Assembly: GCA_963796055.1 (NCBI GenBank)
Contig: CAWCKH010000004.1
Location: 1,120,001 to 1,184,000 of the forward strand
Length of the DNA: 64,000 bases
Direction: 5' to 3'
Source: an uncultured delta proteobacterium
GTDB taxonomy: Bacteria > Myxococcota > Myxococcia > Myxococcales > Myxococcaceae
Numbering within the stretch: the first letter of the stretch is position 1; each line of letters starts with the position of its first letter. The notes below the pieces were generated by a model. That model was not told the DNA's origin, did not search any database, and was given only the letters and a program-made list of their open reading frames with translations. This document shows positions 47,816 through 63,790 of the stretch, piece by piece. A program made the translations under genes and the position numbers.

Positions 47816-48504
47816 TCAAGTACTGTTCCCGACGGCGACAACTTCAGCCGGTGCGAGGGGCGCATCTGCCGCGATGGTGACCACCCATCCATCGCGCGTC
47901 CGCCACAAGCCCCAGAAGGTGGCAGCGGCCGCTCTCACCTGGAACCGGCGCCACCCACTCTCCGGCGCCAATTCGAGCAGCTCCACCGCGAGCGTGCGCG
48001 TGTCCAGGCGAAGGCCCTGGCGAAGCGCCTTGGCCGCGCATTCCTTGGCGCTCCAGATCAAATTCGCTGAGAGATCCCGTCCCAGCGGCGACCGGAGTAC
48101 CGATTTTTGCTCGGCCTCGGTGAAGAAGTCGCTCACGAAGGCAAAGCTCCGCGGCTCGAGCCGCTCGAGGTCGGCCCCGAGCGCGACCTCGGGCCCGGCC
48201 ACCGCGCAGAGCGCGCGACCATCGCGATGGCTCAGCGAGATGGTGACCGGCAACTTCGCACCGCCGATCAGCGCCTCGGGAGCGCCGTCGGGCGCGGCCC
48301 GGATCTCCAGTGACGCGAGCTGCAGAGGGTTCGGCATCCACCCGGAGAGGGCCTGGCGCGCGGCGAGCCTTCCGAGCAGGAAGTCCCGGCGCCGCTGCTC
48401 GATGCGCATACTGCGAGCGCGGTTGCGCTCCGCAGCCGAGAGCCATCCATCAGATGATGGAAGCTCATGCTCGTCCACAACGAGCCAGCCGATCCGGCCG
48501 GCGT

Positions 48505-48508
<4 letters not shown>
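47816..48508 (-). CDS. Sfp-type 4'-phosphopantetheinyl transferase
   Basis: LSAAE...LGRLAAR, ISLSH, GADLE, WSAKECAAKA; GTGA overlap with upstream gene. Confidence 0.88.
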
Positions 48509-53763
<5,255 letters not shown>

Positions 53764-53767
53764 GGCG

Positions 53768-56700
53768 TCACCCCGCCAGCCGCGAGAGCAGCTTGGGGTC
53801 CAGTGCGTCGGGGAGAGGAGTGGTGCGGTAGCCGCTCAGCCGCACGTACGCGTTGCCTGCCTCGTCCACCACCTGGGCATCGAAGGCACCGCCAGGGCCA
53901 TCCACCACCACTGCGCTCAAGCGTCCCACCGCGCGCCGGAGCTCGCCCGCTGCTTCTAGGTAATCCACGTGCTGGGGCAGTCCCAGGTGACCGGTGGCGC
54001 GCATCTCGCGCAGGCCGGCGGTCTGGAAGCACAGCTCGATGAGCCGCGGTGAAAGCAAGAGCGGCGCCTCCGCCGGCTCGTGGTCCAGAGGCAACTGCGC
54101 GGGAAGGACTCCCACCGTGTCGGTCCCAGTGCCATTGGACGCGCGCTCGAGGACCCGGTACGCCGGACCATGGAAGTAGACCCGGTAGATGTCATCCGCC
54201 GGAACCCAGGCGCCCTGTGGCTCGGCCCGCGTAGCCGGCGCCAGCGATGGCGGCGTGCGCGCGAGTCGCACCCGGGCGGTGAAATGGGTGGTGATCTGGG
54301 GAGCCTGTCCGGCAAGCGTCCGCTCGCCGCTCAAGCTGCAGTCGGCGACCAGCTCTCCTCCTTCCTCGCGAATCTGCGCGCACAAGCTCAAGGTGCGAGG
54401 CTGAGCGCGGAAGAACTTGAACGGCGCGAGGAACTCGATCGCCTCCACCGCTGCGAGGTAGTAGCCCGGAGCCAGCAGCGCAGCCAGCTCGCCGAACCCC
54501 TCCACGCCCATCACGCCGGGTAGCACCGGGATCCCGTCGATCTGGTGATCGCGCAGGAACGGCTGCCGCTCGGGATCGAGCGTGGTTTCCACCTCCAGAC
54601 CTCGCTGAAGCGTCATCCCGACCACCCGGCCGATCATCGGGCCGCACCTCGAGGTATCCACCCGCTCAGGAGCGAGCCCCCCGGTCGGATCGCGCTCGTC
54701 GAGCAGCGTCCCCAGCCGCCCGGCGACCACCACCTCTCCACGAGCTCCGCCGCGCGTCAGCTCTCGCCGGATGGTCGGAATGCCTACCTGGGGCGGGAGC
54801 ATCTCGATGCCGGCGCGCTCCATCATCGCCGGGATGGAGCCACGCGTGGCCATGCCGATGCCGGCCCAGGCGGTCCAGTCGATCGCGATGCCCCGCGTGG
54901 CAGGACGCGTGGTGCGCAGCGCGCTCGCCTGCTTGCAGAGGAGATCATTGGCCGCGCTGTAGTCCGTCTGGCCCGCGTTGCCGAAGCGCCCGGCAACGGA
55001 GCTGAAGGCCACCGTCGCCCCGAGCGGCATCTGGCCAATTGCGTGAATCAGGTTGAACCAGCCGTCGCATTTCACGTCGAAGACGAGGTCGAACTCAGCC
55101 TGGCTCTTGTCGGGTAGCACTCGACTGAGCTCCAAGCCGCCGGCGTGGAGCAGGACGTCCACCCGCCCGCTGCCCTCGCGCACCGCATCGATGGCCCGGG
55201 CCACGGCAGACGCATCACGCAAGTCCGCCGAGTGCCAGAAGGCGCGTCCGCCTGCCTCGCGCACCGCCTTGATCGCCGCCGCGCCACTGGCGGCCCGCTC
55301 CAGCGCCGCCAGCTCCTTCTCCACCAGCGCCGGCGTGGCCCGGTCACCGCGCGCCTTCATCCGCTCGAACAGCTCGCGCTTGAGGCCCTCGCGGTCGGTC
55401 GCCAGTCGCTTCACGTCCGACGACTGCCCGTCAGGCTCGGGAATCAGGTCGAGCAGGTGGAAGGTGCCGCCGGAGGAGGCCGCCAGATCGCCGACGATCG
55501 CCGAGACGATGCTGCCCGCCGCGCCGGTCACCACAAAGACGGTATCTCGTCCCAGCGAGAGGCCGGGTTTGCCGTCCGCGGCGAGCACGTCGCGGAGGAC
55601 GACCGAGAAACGTTGCTCCCCAGACCAGCCGATCTCGACTGCCCCCGGATCCCGCAGCGTTTCTTCGACGAGCAGTCGGGCCACCTCCTGGGGCGCCCGG
55701 GAGCCGTCGAAGTCGACGGCCTTGACCAGCGCTTCCGGCCGCTCGCGCGACAACGCCTTCGAGAAGCCAACGACCGCGCCCCCCATCGGCGCACTCGCCC
55801 CGGTCTGGCCATAGCCGTGCAGCCCGCCGAGCCGGGTGGCGACGATCGCGAATGCACCGGGCGCCCCGAGCAACGGATAGAGAGCCCGCGCAGCGGTCGC
55901 GAGGAGCTTCACGCGCAGAAAGAGCGCGGCACGCCACGCTTCCAGCGTCATCGCTCGCAGATCGCCCTCGTCGTCGAGCGCGGGCAGCCAGTAGATGCCG
56001 CGCAGGCCCTTCTCCGCCTCGGCGGAGATCCTTGCCGCGAGCTGATCGGGCGATGTCTGGCGGTCGAGCAGCACCGCTTCCACTCCGATCAGTCCGAGGC
56101 GCGCGACCAGCGCCTCGGCCACGCCGCCGGCATCGGGCATCACCAGCACGCGCGCGCCTCGCTGGAGCAGGACGGCTGTGTCCTTGCAAACGGCCAGCGG
56201 CGGTCGGAGAACCGGGACCGGCACGCGCCGTGGAAAGGCATCGGCCGCGTCAGTCGAGGTCGCCGGGGAAGGACCGGCGCTCGCCGAGGACATGGCGGAC
56301 AGGGGCGCGTCCATCGATGATGCAGGCACCGGCGCAGCGGCCCACGGTGCGGGTAGCGGCGCGGCGGCCGACGGGGGGCCCCCGAGATCCGGTCGCCGCT
56401 CGAGCACGAAGCGAATCACGTGCTCGACGGTGGGAAAGTCGCGCAGCTTGAGGTTCTCATCTCGCGGGATGCCATAGGCCTGGCGCACCGCCGCAAACGT
56501 CTCCGCCTGCTTGACGGTGTCCACGCCAAGGTCCGCCTCGAGGTCGAGCCCCGGATCGATCATGTCCGGCGGATAGCCGGTCTTCTCGGCGACGATGGAG
56601 AGCACCTTGGCGCGCACCGCATCGTCAACCTCATTTCCAGCCACGGGCGACGGACCCCCGGTCGGTGTTGCGGGCTGCGCTCCCGGACCTGCCAGGTCCG

Positions 56701-59700
56701 GCCGCCGGTCGCGGACGAAGCGGATCACGTGCTCGACAGTTGGGAAGTCCCGAAGCTTGAGGTTCTCTTCGCGCGGAATGGCGTAGGCCTCACGGACCGC
56801 GGCGAAGGTCTCCGCCTGTTTGACGGTGTCGACCCCCAGATCGGCTTCGAGGTCGAGCCCCGGGTCGATCATCTCGGGCGGGTAGCCGGTCTTCTGCGCG
56901 ACGATGGCGAGCACCTTCTCTCGAACGGGATCGGCCGCAGCGGACGACGCCGGCGGCGGCGCGGCAGCACCGGCTTGGATCGGAGACGTGGCCGCAGGTC
57001 GACTTGCCGTGGCACCGGCATCCGTGTCGCCTCGACCAATGGGCCCAGGGCTCACCGCGAGATCTGGCCGTCGATCGCGGACGAAGCCGATGACGTGCTC
57101 GACCGTGGGGAAGTCCCGAAGCTTGAGGTTTTCCTCGCGGGGAATGGCATAGGCCTCGCGAACGGCGGCGAACGTCTCCGCCTGCTTGACGGTGTCCACA
57201 CCCAGATCGGCCTCCAGGTCGAGTGAGGGGTCGATCATCTCCGGGGGATAGCCGGTCTTTTCCGCGACAATCGCCAGCACCCTGGTCCGCACGGGATCTG
57301 CGGAGGACGGGGGCGTCGCAGCTGAGCTCAGGCTCGAGGCCGCCGGGGACGTTGCCGCCGAGCTCGGGGTCGGAGCCGCTGGGGCTGGCGGCGCTCCCAC
57401 TCCCGCAGGCGAGGCCGCTCGGCCCGGCTCAACCGCGGGCGCCTGCATCGCGACAGGCGGAGCGGTGGGAGAGGCAGCGCGCGGGGCCGGGGCAGGGGTA
57501 GCAGCCTCTCCCTTGGCGCGCCCTCGGCGGGCATGATCGCCGCTGTCCTGCACGCGCAGCGTCCGCTGAACGACCTCGAGCCGAGCATCCTTTCGTCCGC
57601 TGACCCGGGCAACCCAGGAGTCGAACGCGGCAGGGTTCTCGATTCGCCACTCGTAGCCGAGTGCTTCGGGTGCGCGGCGCGAGCCGTCCACCGACGCCGA
57701 GCGCCGCACGAGCGTCATGCTGATTTGCGATCCGAATCCCGCGGCCAGCCGGAGCGCGTACTCGACCGGTTGCGCTCCGCCCTTGGAGAGATTGAGCGCG
57801 CCAAGCTCGGGATCGACCTCCTTGAAATTCGGAATGGGGGGCACGATGCCGGTTTCGAGCGCCTTGAGCGCCACCACGTCCTCGATACCGACGCCCATCG
57901 GGTGACCGGTGAATCCCTTCGTGTTCGCCACCACGATCCGGTCGGCATCCGCCCCGAACACCTTGCGCAAGGCGAACACCTCGGCGGCTGCGCTTCCGCC
58001 TCGGGCCGGGGTGTACGTTTCGTGCGACAGGAAGACCAGCTGGTGCGCGATCTCGGCTCGCCGAAGGCCGGTACGCTCTTCGACCTGCGAGATGAGTCGC
58101 TCCATCAACCCGCCGATGTGCTCGACGTCGAGGCGGGTCCCATGGAATGCGCTGTTCGCGGCGACCGCCCCGAGCACCTCCCCGATCGGGCGAAGCCCAC
58201 GGTCCTGTGCGGCGGAGGCGCTTTCCACCACCATTGCAGCGGCGCCCATCCCGACGATCATTCCGTGGCGCCTTCGATCGAAGGGGGTGGCCGCGTCCTC
58301 GGCGAGCGCATCCGTGGCTGCCGCTCCGCTGGCCAGAAAGCCTGCACCGATCCACTCCATCAAGTTGTCCGAGGTCGCATCGTCCCCGGCGATGACGATC
58401 ACCCGTCGGCAGCGGCCGGCACGGATCCAGTCCTCCGCCAGCGTGACGGCCAGCGTCGTGCTGGCGCAGGCGGAGTTCACTTGGGTATTGGGCCCGCGCG
58501 CGCCGATGTACTCCGCGAACTGCGAATGACCCATCGACAGAACGCGGAACAGGAACCGCCGGTCGAATGCGTATGGCTCGCGTTCCAGCTGGCCGCGAAG
58601 CTCATCGATGCGGCGAGCGAGGTCGGCGATGACGGGATCGTGCCCGTTGTCCGGAGCCCGCCGCGCATGGAGGGCCTCCAGCGCCTGCAGCTGCTCGCGG
58701 CGAGCCCGATCGCGGTGGTAGCGTGTCATCTCTCCGGCCAGCGCATTCAGCCCCGGAAATGCCGAGGCGAAAATGACGCCGGTCTCGTCGCGAAGCTCGT
58801 CGGGAAGCATCCAGCGATCGGGCAGCTGCGTCCCGCGGGTGGTGGTGCGATAGCGCAGGACGAGCGGAATTCCGGCGTCGCGCAGCGCCTCGAGACCCGC
58901 GGCGATCGCCAGAGAGGTCGTGACGTCGAACGCCTCGACGCGTTCCTTGGGCACGCCGAACTCGGCGGTCAAATCGAACTCGCCGCGCCGGCCCGCCAAC
59001 TTGATCACCTCAGCTGGGCTCTCCAGCGCTGCGAAGTTTGCGCTTCCGTCCTCGCCCTTCACCAGCCGGGTGATGTGCTTGGCGAGCATCGCTTTCCGCA
59101 GGCGAGCCGGAATCGAGTCGATCAACTGCTCGCCCTCGAGGATCCGAGCCACGTTGTCGTCGGCGAAGACACGCTCGCCTCCAGGCAGACCGAGACCTGC
59201 TCCGGTGATGACCACCGGCTCGGCCACCGCCGGCTTGGCCGCTGGCGGACGAACTTGCGGCTCGGGCAGAGGTCTGGCCGGCGCTTCCGGTGCCGCTTCC
59301 GCCCGTCCCGATCCGATCCCTGCGGCGTAGAGCCCGCAGAGCGCCCGATTGAAGGCGACCGCGTCGTCGATCTTCGGATGATTCGTGAACAGGACGCTCA
59401 CGCCCTCGCGGTCGCCGAGGACCTCCTCGGCAAACCCTTGCAGTGCCTTCTTCGGCCCCACCTCCACGAAGACGCGTGCGCCGGCCCGATAGAGAGTCTC
59501 CAGGCCCTTGACGAACTGAACCGGCGCCGCGACCTGCTTGCTCAGCATGTCGATCACCGCCGAGCGCACCTCGCCTTCCGCCGGGTAGAAGTCGCCGGTG
59601 ACGTTGGCCACCACGGGAATCCTGGGCGGCTTGACCTCCAGTCGCTCGAGCATCTTGCGCAGCGGCTCGCTGGCCGGGGCGACGATCGCGGTGTGAAAGG

Positions 59701-62104
59701 CATGGCTCACTGGCAGAAGCACCGTGTTGCGCCCCGCCTCGGTGAACATCTGCTGGGCCTGGGTCACCGCCTTGCTCTCTCCGCCGATCACCGCTTGAGT
59801 GCGGCTGTTCACGTTCGCCACCACGGCGTAGCCGTCGATCTTCGCCAGCGTTTGCTCGATCTCCTCCAGCGGCGCGGTGACCGCCACCATCAACCCGTTG
59901 TCCTCCAGCGAGACCCGGGTCATCTCACGGCCGCGCGCGCTCACCGCTTCCAGCGCGTCGCGGAACGAGAGCGCGCCGGCCACGGTCAGCGCGCCGTACT
60001 CGCCGAGGCTGTGGCCGATCACGAAATCCGGCGAGACTCCGAACGATGAGAACAGGCGCGTCAAGGCCACGTCGACGGTCAGCACAGCGGGCTGGGTGAT
60101 CGCCGTCTGGCGAAGCGCCTCTTCCGCAGCGGGGTCCTTCGGATCGGCGAACAGGTAGGAGCTGAGCGATCGGTCCAGCAGGGCCGGCATCTCCCGATCT
60201 GCTTCGGCGAACGTCTCCGCCACGATCGGTTCCAGCTCCCGCAGCTTCCTCAGCATGCCGACGTACTGCGAGCCCTGGCCGGTGTAGAGGAACGCGAGCT
60301 TCCCCGCCGGGCCCCGCCCGCGGAAGATTCCCCGCGCCCGCAGCGCCTTCCACGACCCGGCTTCGTCGTTGACCAGCGCATGGCGCGCCAGCGCGGCGTT
60401 CTCCGCCAGCTCGGCCGCGTTTCCGTAGTCCAACGCCACGCGCTCCTGGGCGCGCAGGTCGCGCTGGTCGGGCGCGAGCAGCGGCGGCAGGCGTCCCTCG
60501 TGCGCCTCGCGCTCGGTCGCCTCCAGCCTCCGGGCGAGCTCTTCACGCGTGGTGGCGCCGATCAGCAGTGCCCCTCTCAGCGGAGGGCGCGGCTCGGAAG
60601 CATCGCGCGCCAGCGCGACGGGCTCCGTTGGTTGTCGCAGTGCAGCCCCGGTCGGAGAGCTTCGCTTGCCCGAGAGCATTCCTGGCACGAACTCCTCCAG
60701 CACGACGTGGAAGTTCGTGCCGCCGAACCCGAATGCGCTCACCCCCGCGCGCCGCGGTGTCCCGTCCTTCGGGGCATCCCACGATTGCAGCTCGCGGTTC
60801 ACCCGGAACGGGGAATGGGCGAAGTCGATGTTTGGGTTCGGCTTCTCACAGTGGAGGCTGGGCGGGAGCACCTTCTCGTGGAGGGCCAGGATGGCCTTGA
60901 GCAGGCCTGCGGCGCCGGCCGCGGCCTTCAGATGCCCGATGTTCGATTTCACCGAGCCGAGCGCGATCGCGCCAGCGGGAAGCTGCGCTCCGCCGAAGGA
61001 CTCGGTGAGGCTCTCGACCTCGACCACATCGCCCACCTTGGTGGAGGTGCCATGTCCTTCGATCAATCCGGCGCTCGAAGGCGGCAGGCCGGCGGACTGC
61101 CACGCACGTTGGACGGCGAGCTTCTGGCCCACCGGGTTTGGTGCGGTGATCCCTTTGCCCTTGCCGTCGCTCGAGCCGCCGATCCCGCGCAGCACGGCAT
61201 AGATCCGGTCGCCGTCTCGCTCGGCGTCGGCCAGTCGCTTGAGCAGAAACACGGCCGCGCCTTCCCCCATCACGAAGCCATCGGCTCCATCGGCGTAGGG
61301 GCGCGTCCCGGTGGCCGAGAGGGCGCCGATCTTGCAGAATTTCACGAATGCATTGACGCCCATGTTCCGGTCGATTCCGCCGGTGAGCGCAGCGTCGATG
61401 TCCCCTTCGACGAGGCCGTGCATCGCAGCCTCCATCGCCGCCATCGAGGACGCGCAGGCGGCGTCCACCGTGTAGTTCGGCCCGCGCAAGTCAAAGACGT
61501 TGGCCACGCGGCCGGCGATGATGTTCGACAGCTCGCCGGGCATGGAGTCCTCGGTGATCACCGGAAGTCGCGCTTCCAGCGCTTCACGCGCATCCCTGGA
61601 GAGCCGCTCGCGGAGGTCCCTGGGGAGCTCCTCGAAGCTCTTGGCGTGCTCCAGCGCCTGAGAGATTTCCGGGATCAGCGTGCGCATCGTGGTGAACAGA
61701 TGGCGCTCGCCCCCCATCGCGTTGCCGAAGATCACCGCGGTTCGCACCGGATCGAGTGGGCGCTTTGGATACCCGTAATCGAGCAGCGCGGCGCGCGAAC
61801 AGGCCACGGCCCACTTCTGGCCGTCATCCATGGCCTCGGCGACCCGAGGGGGAATGGGAAGCTTCCAGCCGATTGGATCCCAGCTCCACGAGCGGACCCA
61901 GCCGCCGATCTTCGAGTAGGTTCGATCGGGCGCCGCGGGATCCGGATCCCAGTGGAGAGCAGGATCCCAACGCTCTGGCGACACTTCGGAGATGCTGTAG
62001 CTGCCTGAGGTGACGTTCCTCCAGAAGGCGGCCACGTCCGGCGCGTCGGGCAAAATGGCGCCCAGGCCCACGATGGCGATGCTCCGGTTCAGCTTGTCTT
62101 CCAT
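53768..62104 (-). CDS. Iterative type I PKS/FAS, Pfa-related: KS-AT-KS-ACPx3-KR-DH
   Basis: KS1 DAACASS/HGTST/NIGH; AT GQGSQ/GHSLG/HAFH; KS2 SACAST/HETYT/TGHP; three [39 protein letters not shown]. Confidence 0.93.
56385..57298 (-). repeat. Three near-identical ACP domains separated by Pro/Ala/Ser linkers
   Basis: About 57060-57298, 56690-56932 and 56385-56620; proteins nearly identical with many synonymous differences. Confidence 0.9.
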
Positions 62105-62122: not shown

Positions 62123-63790
62123 TCAGGCGGCCTGCTGCTTCTCGGCGGCTCGCCCGTAGATGGCGTCCGCGGCCGCGTCCATGTCGGCCACCAGCCCGAT
62201 CTGGGCTCGATGAATCTCGGGCAGGCCCAGCGAAGCCTCCAGCGCTGGAACCTCGGCGTCGCGAACGCCGCCCGCGCCGCAGATCCACGCCAATCCTTCC
62301 TCGCTGATCCTTGCCGCCGCCTCTCGGGCGAAGATGCGGCTGAGCGCCGCCAGCGGCTCAGGCGCGAAACGTCCGTCGGCCTTTTCGGGGAGCGTTCCGG
62401 CGAATGCCGCTGCCGCCCGGCGCGCGAACGCAGCGGCGGTTTCCCCGAAGGCGATCAGCTCGCCCAAGCGAAACAGCACGTGCTGGTGGCGAGTCAGCCT
62501 GGCGACGCGCGAGCGCTCCATCACCTCGGCGAGCGACTCGAGGGCGAGCGCTGCGATCGGCCCGCCCGAGCTTGCCGGAAGCTGTGTCACCTTCCGCGCC
62601 TGCTCCCGGTGGTACTGACCGCGCGTCTTCAAGTGCTGCTGCCAGCGATCGCGGGCGATGGTCATCTCCAGTATTTCGGAGGTTCCCTCGTAGATGGTGG
62701 TGATCCGGACATCGCGTTTGATTTTCTCGACCATGTACTCGCGGGTGTACCCGTAGCCGCCGAGCGCCTGGATGGACGCGTCGGCGGCGCGGTTGCCCGC
62801 CTCGGTCGCCAACAGCTTGGCGATCGCGCCTTCGGTGTTCAGCTCCTTCTCGCCCTCGTCCAGGCGGGTGGAGGTCTCCTCGACGTGCGCCCGCGCCGCC
62901 TCCAGTCGCGCGGCGTGGGGGACGATCAGCTTGTGGGTGTACCCCTGCTTTCCCGAGAGCGGCGAGCCGCCTTGCAGGCGCGTCTTGGAGTACTCGATCG
63001 CCCGGTCCAGGGCAGCCCAGCCGGCCCCCAGTCCGAATGCAGCGACCATCAATCGGGTGTAGCCGAAGACCGCCTGCGCCTGGACCAGGCCGCGCCCCTC
63101 CACCAGCCCGACCACCCGGTCGACGGGGACCTCCACTTCGTCGAGCGCGAGCGCCGCGGTGTTGCTGGCGCGAATGCCGTGCTTGTCCTCTGGTTTGCCG
63201 GCGCTCAGACCCGGCGTTCCCTTGTCGACCACGAACCAGGTCGGCCCCCCGGGAGCGTTGGCGAGGATGGTGTAGAGGTCTGCAAAGCCGCCGTTGCTGA
63301 TCCACTGCTTGGCGCCGTTGAGGCGATAGCCCACCAGCTGACCGTCCTTCTCCACGCGGGTCGCGGTCGTTCGCAGAGCGCCCAGGTCGCTGCCCGCGGC
63401 CGGCTCGGTTGCGCCGTACGCCATGATGATTCCCTCGTCGGCGATCCTGGTCAGCCAGCGCTGCTTCTGTTCCTCCGTCCCGCCCACGGAGATCGGCTCA
63501 CTGCCGAGGAAGGTGGCGAACAGGCCGGTGGCGATGCCCACGTCGATTCGCGCCATCTGCTCGCACAGGCGGTACAGGTCGAAGGATCCGCCGCCCATGC
63601 CATGCAGCTCCTCGGGCATGAACGCCATCTGGATGCCAAGCTCGGGACCGCACATGCCGCGGATGATCTCGACCGGGTACTCGTCCTTCGCATCGAGCTC
63701 GAGAAGCTTGGGGTCGGTGAGCCGCCTGGCTCCAAAATCCCTCAGGGCATCGATGATTTCTTGAAGCGTCTGCCTGTCCAGTCCTCCCAT
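62123..63790 (-). CDS. Acyl-CoA dehydrogenase family protein with C-terminal extension
   Basis: [41 protein letters not shown]. Confidence 0.92.

Follow-up and report, generated by a model that had tools for sequence, protein, structure and literature searches.

Threonine in place of serine at the carrier attachment site of a family of Type R secondary-lipid synthases

The genomic neighborhood analyzed here is a row of four minus-strand genes in a 64,000-nucleotide stretch of DNA from an uncultured member of the Myxococcaceae (assembly GCA_963796055.1, contig CAWCKH010000004.1, positions 1,120,001 to 1,184,000 of the forward strand; hereinafter, the window). These genes encode, in this order, an acyl-CoA dehydrogenase-family protein, a 2778-amino acid (aa) megasynthase, a biotin carboxylase and an Sfp-type phosphopantetheinyl transferase (PPTase). 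The synthase contains three acyl carrier protein (ACP) domains, all of which have Thr where the Ser that carries the phosphopantetheine arm is expected. The genes and the domains of the synthase, including the ketosynthases (KS), the acyltransferase (AT), the ketoreductase (KR) and the dehydratase (DH), are as follows.

62123-63790, minus strand: gene of the acyl-CoA dehydrogenase family, 555 aa when counted from the likely ATG, with the Pfam Acyl-CoA_dh N, M and 1 domains; opens the conserved core
53768-62104, minus strand: Type R megasynthase, KS1-AT-KS2-ACP3-KR-DH (three ACPs), 2778 aa; open reading frame and Pfam
60692-62086, minus strand: KS1 (Cys217, His351, His391); Pfam, triad in 45/45 homologs
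59414-60292, minus strand: AT (GHSLG Ser699, HAFH His804); Pfam and alignment
57605-59194, minus strand: KS2, the marker domain of the family, with the Cys1213-His1361-His1401 triad intact; 45/45 homologs
57050-57298, minus strand: ACP1, Thr1638, codon at 57191-57193; Thr at the start of helix II
56690-56932, minus strand: ACP2, Thr1760, codon at 56825-56827; residues 1722-1799 contain no Ser
56381-56623, minus strand: ACP3, Thr1863, codon at 56516-56518
54863-55552, minus strand: KR (Ser2369, Tyr2382); Pfam and alignment
53804-54640, minus strand: double-hotdog DH of the polyketide synthase (PKS) type (His2520, Glu2690); Pfam and alignment
48505-53763, minus strand: single-chain biotin carboxylase, BC-BCCP-CT, 1752 aa; Pfam
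47816-48508, minus strand: dedicated Sfp-type PPTase (His94, Asp113, Glu115, Trp152, Glu156, Lys160), 230 aa; Pfam and alignment

The PPTase gene is the last in the operon, and its GTG start codon overlaps the stop codon of the carboxylase gene. An earlier sequence-only reading of the window had placed all carriers of the operon in the synthase and a PPTase in the same operon; indeed, the Pfam search assigns PP-binding stretches to the synthase alone, three in number, with no match in the products of the other operon genes. The attachment-site codon is ACC (Thr) in all three ACP domains, at exactly the positions given in that reading, and the synonymous divergence between the copies that it reported is borne out as well, with 27-28 synonymous and 7-15 non-synonymous differences per pair over 78 codons. 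Short-read contigs of other runs cover all three Thr codons, with no change listed: X1 contigs include those of ACP3 and ACP1 (the ACP1 codon lies just 10 letters from the contig end), and X3 contigs those of ACP2 and ACP1. Given that the three ACP copies descend from one another, they do not represent three independent events, so the evidence of selection rests on the homologs.

Apart from the attachment residue, which is Thr in the three domains and in the family where acyl carrier proteins (PF00550) have the Ser of GxDS, the domains show the helical-bundle fold of ACPs with the site at the start of helix II. In alignments to ACPs from PDB, the window Thr falls on the Ser of GxDS; in the AlphaFold2 model of ACP1 (pLDDT 94), helix II begins at this Thr, and the top Foldseek matches of the model are ACPs, including AcpP (TM about 0.8). 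The ACPs of Pfa synthases presumably read LGIDSIK.

The catalytic residues of the synthase are conserved. When the first 45 full-length homologs of the family set were aligned, no substitution was seen in the triads of KS1 and KS2, the Ser and His of the AT, the Ser and Tyr of the KR, or the His of the DH, and the DH Glu was retained in 44/45; in the distant representatives, the KS2 Cys was found in 111/111 cases where the motif matched. The HAFH motif of the AT is presumably malonyl-specific, and the dehydrogenase-family protein of the window retains the YEGT motif, the Glu of which we take to be the catalytic Glu of acyl-CoA dehydrogenases. Judging by these residues, the synthase looks active, and an active synthase of this kind requires a holo carrier.

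The conservation of the Thr was assessed in several sets of homologs that overlap in part. A genome scan with ACP1 and the linker as the query, with seeds that excluded the site, produced 347 matching stretches, of which the best 80 loci were analyzed. These come from Acidobacteriota (52), Chloroflexota (14), Myxococcota (6), Gemmatimonadota (2), and Spirochaetota, Pseudomonadota and Binatota (1 each), with 3 loci lacking a phylum. Among the 298 ACP matches in these loci, 293 have Thr and none has Ser; the remaining 5 do not cover the site. Thr is present in 258/258 distinct full ACP domains, which show a mean pairwise identity of 72% (the lowest value in 3000 sampled pairs being 52%), and 11 motif positions beside it are invariant. 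Because the 80 loci had been ranked by ACP similarity, the count was repeated with homologs picked by the ketosynthase alone. The KS1-chosen set consists of 93 family proteins, 89 of which have ACPs, with 291 Thr and no Ser (the three domains of the window included). The KS2-chosen set comprises 150 representatives at 50% clustering, which are about 40-75% identical; their 345 ACP matches include 325 with Thr, 12 with Ser, 6 with other residues and 2 with gaps. No ACP match was obtained for 28 of these representatives, and a Pfam scan of 7 of the 28 found no PP-binding domain. In the host phylum, KS2 is present in 57 of 401 genomes, and the 40 of these 57 loci that were analyzed have 117 Thr, no Ser and a single Ala (locus L131). 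A motif search in 24 unrelated PKSs, which served as a control, recovered 113 Ser and no Thr.

The homolog alignment that the sequence-only reading had proposed, once run, thus returned Thr rather than Ser at this site. Judged by this conservation and by the agreement of independent contigs, the Thr is a strongly selected trait of the family and not decay or error, as that reading had claimed. Sequencing error or decay of a single gene might be considered given the patchy spread of the cluster, which is missing from all 8 further genomes in the host genus and is found in 2/171 of the host family, so that it maybe arrived recently and perhaps was acquired sideways. This explanation is refuted by the independent contigs, the hundreds of homologs with Thr and the intact frame and catalytic residues, and its probability is negligible. 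Low-rate insertion of Ser at the Thr codon, through a mischarged tRNA or RNA editing, such that only the resulting chains are active, would benefit from the several ACP copies, which should make a Ser in one of them more likely. However, all four Thr codons are used at the site in the 80 loci (ACG 142, ACC 126, ACT 17, ACA 9), 48 of these loci mix Thr codons at the motif, and the trait occurs in archaea as well as in at least seven phyla of bacteria. Moreover, a plain Ser codon would be strongly favored under this scenario, and yet Ser is rare; hence, we consider such insertion extremely improbable.

The segment with the tandem ACPs shows an accumulation of frame breaks in many assemblies (among them L002, L016, L024, L027, L040, L041 and L059); these are probably assembly or long-read errors in repeats.

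The Ser matches in the KS2-chosen set comprise 10 intact domains, in four representatives (P0182, P0225, P0240 and P0242), and 2 decayed copies; according to the source annotation, two of the four members are from Heimdallarchaeota, and one has no taxon on record. Four changes are required to explain the Ser state in the KS2 tree (122 rows), the root of which was not carefully inferred. Within a subsample of 32 rows, every Ser member falls within a starred clade of Thr members, and a single Ser clade is rejected (approximately unbiased test, p 2e-52), so that separate returns from Thr to Ser would be the simple reading of the KS2 tree. P0225 and its cluster combine ACPs in the Ser-Thr-Ser arrangement with one fused PPTase; the tridomain of P0276 likewise has this arrangement along with a fused PPTase. 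The position three residues past the site is occupied by Gln in 322 of the 325 Thr domains vs 3 of the 12 Ser matches. The decayed ACP-like copies in the distant set have Asp, Gly, Ile, Gln or Pro at the site and have lost the surrounding motif. In the intact motifs of this set, Ser is the sole residue besides Thr; in other words, the intact domains retain a hydroxyl, as predicted for an attachment site.

These patterns bear on the possibility that the Thr domains are permanently apo and function in scaffolding or docking, with a Ser-ACP, for example AcpP, being activated by the cluster PPTase and acting in trans. The S36T variant of the E. coli ACP, according to the available text of the respective study, is neither modified nor functional (PMC3340395; the same variant is used in PMC13343975), and Ser carriers are available: the host genome contains five further PP-binding matches, all with Ser (AcpP and four others), and PP-binding matches were detected in 50/50 host genomes tested, the synthase's own domains counted in. 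However, the 80 loci contain no conserved stand-alone ACP, the lone Ser-ACP match among them being located in an unrelated 980-aa frame, and AcpP already is served by AcpS, which would leave a fused second PPTase unexplained. Furthermore, the decayed copies lose the whole motif while the Thr copies keep the invariant neighboring positions, and the intact distant copies exchange Thr with Ser alone. Taken together, these observations make permanently apo domains quite unlikely.

In addition to the PPTase of the operon, the host genome encodes AcpS and a second Sfp-type PPTase (C6:35742-36497). About 8 kb from the latter, there is a gene for a free carrier with an unusual GMTSH motif (G000:C6:44125-44403). 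Two other candidate roles were considered and discarded. The notion that Thr shields the carrier from ACP phosphodiesterase is unsupported, with no PF04336 match in the host genome (98.5% complete). Replacement of the cell's type II system of fatty acid synthesis (FAS II) by the Thr-containing synthase was rejected as well. FabZ has no match in 11/50 host genomes, mostly of the Anaerolineae type, but given that the FabZ cut-off is reached by 0/151 genomes of that class, whereas just 16/151 encode the synthase, this absence characterizes the class and is not complementary to the synthase.

The PPTase of the operon displays the hallmarks of the Sfp type, namely, a length of about 230 aa, the CoA-binding His, and the GxDxE and WxxKE..K motifs. 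The His, Asp, Trp, Glu and Lys are kept in 38/38 family PPTases and Glu115 in 37/38, and these residues match those of Sfp. A PPTase is encoded in 48 of the 50 loci with enough downstream room, and in each of three tested loci without one, a close member was found elsewhere in the genome (E at most 1e-74). Among the best 54 PPTase-profile matches in the 401 host-phylum genomes, at a cut-off of 123.5 bits that was picked after the list had been seen, 52 belong to synthase genomes, and the remaining two are long frames of incomplete assemblies; such a match is present in 52/57 synthase genomes. The co-occurring genomes are kin rather than independent, and therefore, no statistical test is given. 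Fusion of the PPTase to the synthase was observed in 39 of the 150 KS2-chosen representatives, of which 35 are Thr-only, 1 is Ser-only, 1 is mixed, and 2 have no ACP in the fragment. The co-occurrence of the synthase with a PPTase clade, which the sequence-only reading had put forward for testing, is thus found: on the strength of these sequence comparisons, a distinct, dedicated and catalytically intact PPTase clade tracks the synthase and often is fused to it.

A model of the PPTase-CoA-Mg-ACP complex obtained a score of 0.90, compared to 0.02 for the best control, with at least 96% of the contacts shared between runs and a partner pLDDT of 91; the mark applied to such models is attained by 116/157 solved pairs and 2/215 mismatched pairs. 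Given that PPTase-ACP complexes have already been solved, this result shows likeness more than binding. The modelled interface holds the Asp-Thr-Val of the ACP along with Glu115, Trp152 and Glu156 of the PPTase. Conceivably, the arm could be attached to another residue, or the Thr could bear some other group, such as a direct O-acyl ester or another CoA-derived moiety, and the domains do contain two further near-invariant Thr residues, in the KTGYP and PT motifs. However, neither of these is part of the modelled interface, which includes the site Thr; 114/258 domains have no Ser at all, and in 227/258 there is no Ser at a distance of up to 10 residues from the site. With KS and AT residues that are those of normal thioester chemistry and a PPTase active site that is normal, we consider a different linkage unlikely.

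We estimate at about 0.8 the probability that, as suggested by the sequence comparison and the structural model, phosphopantetheine is installed on the Thr by the cognate PPTase and is followed by ordinary thioester chemistry. Under this scenario, the operon would encode a self-contained, iterative, fatty-acid-type synthase that uses Thr as the carrier attachment residue. The Sfp-type PPTase would bind CoA and Mg, dock to ACP helix II and attach 4'-phosphopantetheine to the GxDTVKQ Thr via its hydroxyl. As could be expected from what is known of such families, the carboxylase would then provide malonyl-CoA, the AT would load the arm, both intact KS domains would catalyze condensation, and the KR and DH would perform reduction and dehydration. 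The likely reason for the use of Thr seems to be insulation, in that housekeeping PPTases, which require Ser, would not act on the Thr domains.

Several observations weigh against attachment to Thr. The strongest is the lack of modification of the E. coli S36T variant in the available text of that study (PMC3340395), although the same failure suggests a possible reason for the trait, namely that Thr shuts out housekeeping transferases. AcpP and the other Ser-ACPs of the genome in principle could act in trans. By-eye comparison with Sfp and with the fused PPTases of Ser members revealed no PPTase residue that marks adaptation to Thr, nor an evident difference between the fused PPTases from the two kinds of members. 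As for the specialized PPTase that had been proposed from the window sequence, what is borne out is a dedicated clade; no sequence feature of Thr adaptation was found in the comparison, and the Ser revertants retain a PPTase of this kind. Finally, one RNA run yielded only short, divergent contig pieces for the synthase cluster.

The synthase chain of the window lacks an enoyl reductase (ER) domain. The acyl-CoA dehydrogenase, together with electron transfer flavoprotein (ETF), may substitute for it, so that the product would be a long, largely reduced acyl chain; we give this assignment a little less than an even chance. Of the 68 loci with sufficient room, 66 have the dehydrogenase gene directly upstream of the synthase gene. 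Genes for both ETF subunits were identified in 33/80 loci and a CCG-domain Fe-S protein in 30/80; in many acidobacterial loci, genes for a CCG-domain Fe-S oxidoreductase, etfB and etfA directly precede the dehydrogenase gene (L008:1-4191, L016:1-4596 and 31 more). A fused Pfam NMO region, which we take to be a PfaD/FabK-like reductase, is present in up to 19 of the 150 representatives and in 0/80 loci, and of 41 later loci, the dehydrogenase alone is present in 24, the reductase alone in 1 and none of the two in 16. Because the metagenome scan for reductase-fused members gave one locus, the mutual exclusivity of dehydrogenase and reductase was tested mostly one way. Two points speak against the dehydrogenase as the reductase: a third subtype, L120-L132, lacks both the dehydrogenase and any reductase domain in the vicinity, and ETF is just as compatible with the oxidative direction. 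The loci of this subtype encode an extra Thr-ACP between KS1 and AT and a fused PPTase, and several of them adjoin rodA-like and YqgE-like genes (labelled by eye). Three ketosynthase stretches were observed in the variants P0176, P0208 and P0243. Some carboxylase gene is present in 48/80 loci, many of which are cut by contig ends. The upstream gene for an SDR/epimerase (G000:C4:1183998-1184954) was rejected as a part of the system, being found in 0/80 loci.

According to the source annotation, the family extends to Asgard archaea (Heimdallarchaeota), with members P0276, P0273, P0271, P0151, P0182 and P0152, as well as locus L112. The members from Ca. Heimdallarchaeum endolithica and aukensis are located on contigs of 3.3 and 3.1 Mb, respectively, and the endolithica protein is a single chain with the architecture ER-KS-AT-KS-ACP3-KR-DH-PPTase. 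The main text of the Heimdallarchaeum genome paper does not contain the terms 'polyketide', 'acyl carrier' or 'ketoacyl' (PMC8813620). A search of the open literature, with subscription journals largely outside its range, found no report of such a synthase in Asgard archaea or of Thr phosphopantetheinylation. We tentatively propose, as a broader scenario that is somewhat less probable than not, that O-phosphopantetheinyl-Thr is an undescribed linkage within a naturally orthogonal pair that is ignored by AcpS and Sfp. Such a pair would wall off a complete, self-activating synthase from FAS II, and would have spread over many bacterial phyla into Asgard archaea, where the single-chain form could support ACP-dependent fatty-acid synthesis. 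Given that the Ser-to-Thr substitution is a dead control in E. coli in the available text of the study (PMC3340395), the conservation of Thr throughout a family in nature would constitute an exception, with a new post-translational linkage. If this is the case, annotation rules under which a carrier without Ser counts as inactive would misjudge hundreds of clusters in soil Acidobacteriota, Chloroflexota and Myxococcota, and the single chain of Heimdallarchaeota could mean ACP-dependent fatty-acid synthesis in relatives of eukaryotes. Should the pair prove orthogonal to AcpS and Sfp, it would also lend itself readily to site-specific labelling and to the insulation of engineered synthases.

Among the known systems, the cluster is the Type R secondary-lipid synthase of Shulse and Allen 2011 (PMC3098273). 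As in the Type R description, it includes a single pfaA homolog with the organization KS-MAT-(second KS/CLF)-ACP(3-6)-KR and a downstream PPTase, sometimes with a carboxylase gene in between. The Type R hosts listed in the available text of that paper are Koribacter, Solibacter, Roseiflexus and Elusimicrobium (PMC3098273), and close homologs found in Korobacteraceae and Roseiflexus records reach 58-59% identity in the best segment. In contrast to the 2011 layout, as given in that text (PMC3098273), the domain named there a chain-length factor (CLF) is here a KS2 with all residues of the catalytic triad in place, the KR is followed by a DH, and the synthase gene is preceded by a gene for an acyl-CoA dehydrogenase. 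The family is large, known since 2011 and uncharacterized; the main text on Type R contains neither 'threonine' nor 'serine', does not note the Thr at the site and gives no product (PMC3098273). The best NCBIfam match of the synthase is PfaA of the omega-3 polyunsaturated fatty acid (PUFA) synthases (TIGR02813), with which it shares KS-AT, tandem ACPs and KR; it differs in the extra KS and the PKS-type DH, and its score of 885.6 is below the cut-off of 1010.1. None of the partners pfaB, pfaC and pfaD was found in the operon or among the conserved neighbors, and with the low score and these genes missing, identity with the omega-3 PUFA synthase PfaA-E was rejected. Compared to canonical ACP/Sfp pairs (1QR0, 4MRT, E. 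coli AcpP), the ACP fold, the site at the start of helix II, where canonical ACPs have it as well (PMC7949117), and the Sfp-like catalytic residues are the same. The family differs in having Thr in place of Ser and, mostly, Gln three residues on, whereas the available text of reviews places the carrier arm on a conserved Ser (PMC7949117, PMC6619796). Some members of the family, like the fungal type I FAS, consist of one chain, ER-KS-AT-KS-ACPn-KR-DH-PPTase, in which the domain order and the placement of the reductase are different. The fungal type I FAS is self-activating via its fused C-terminal PPTase.

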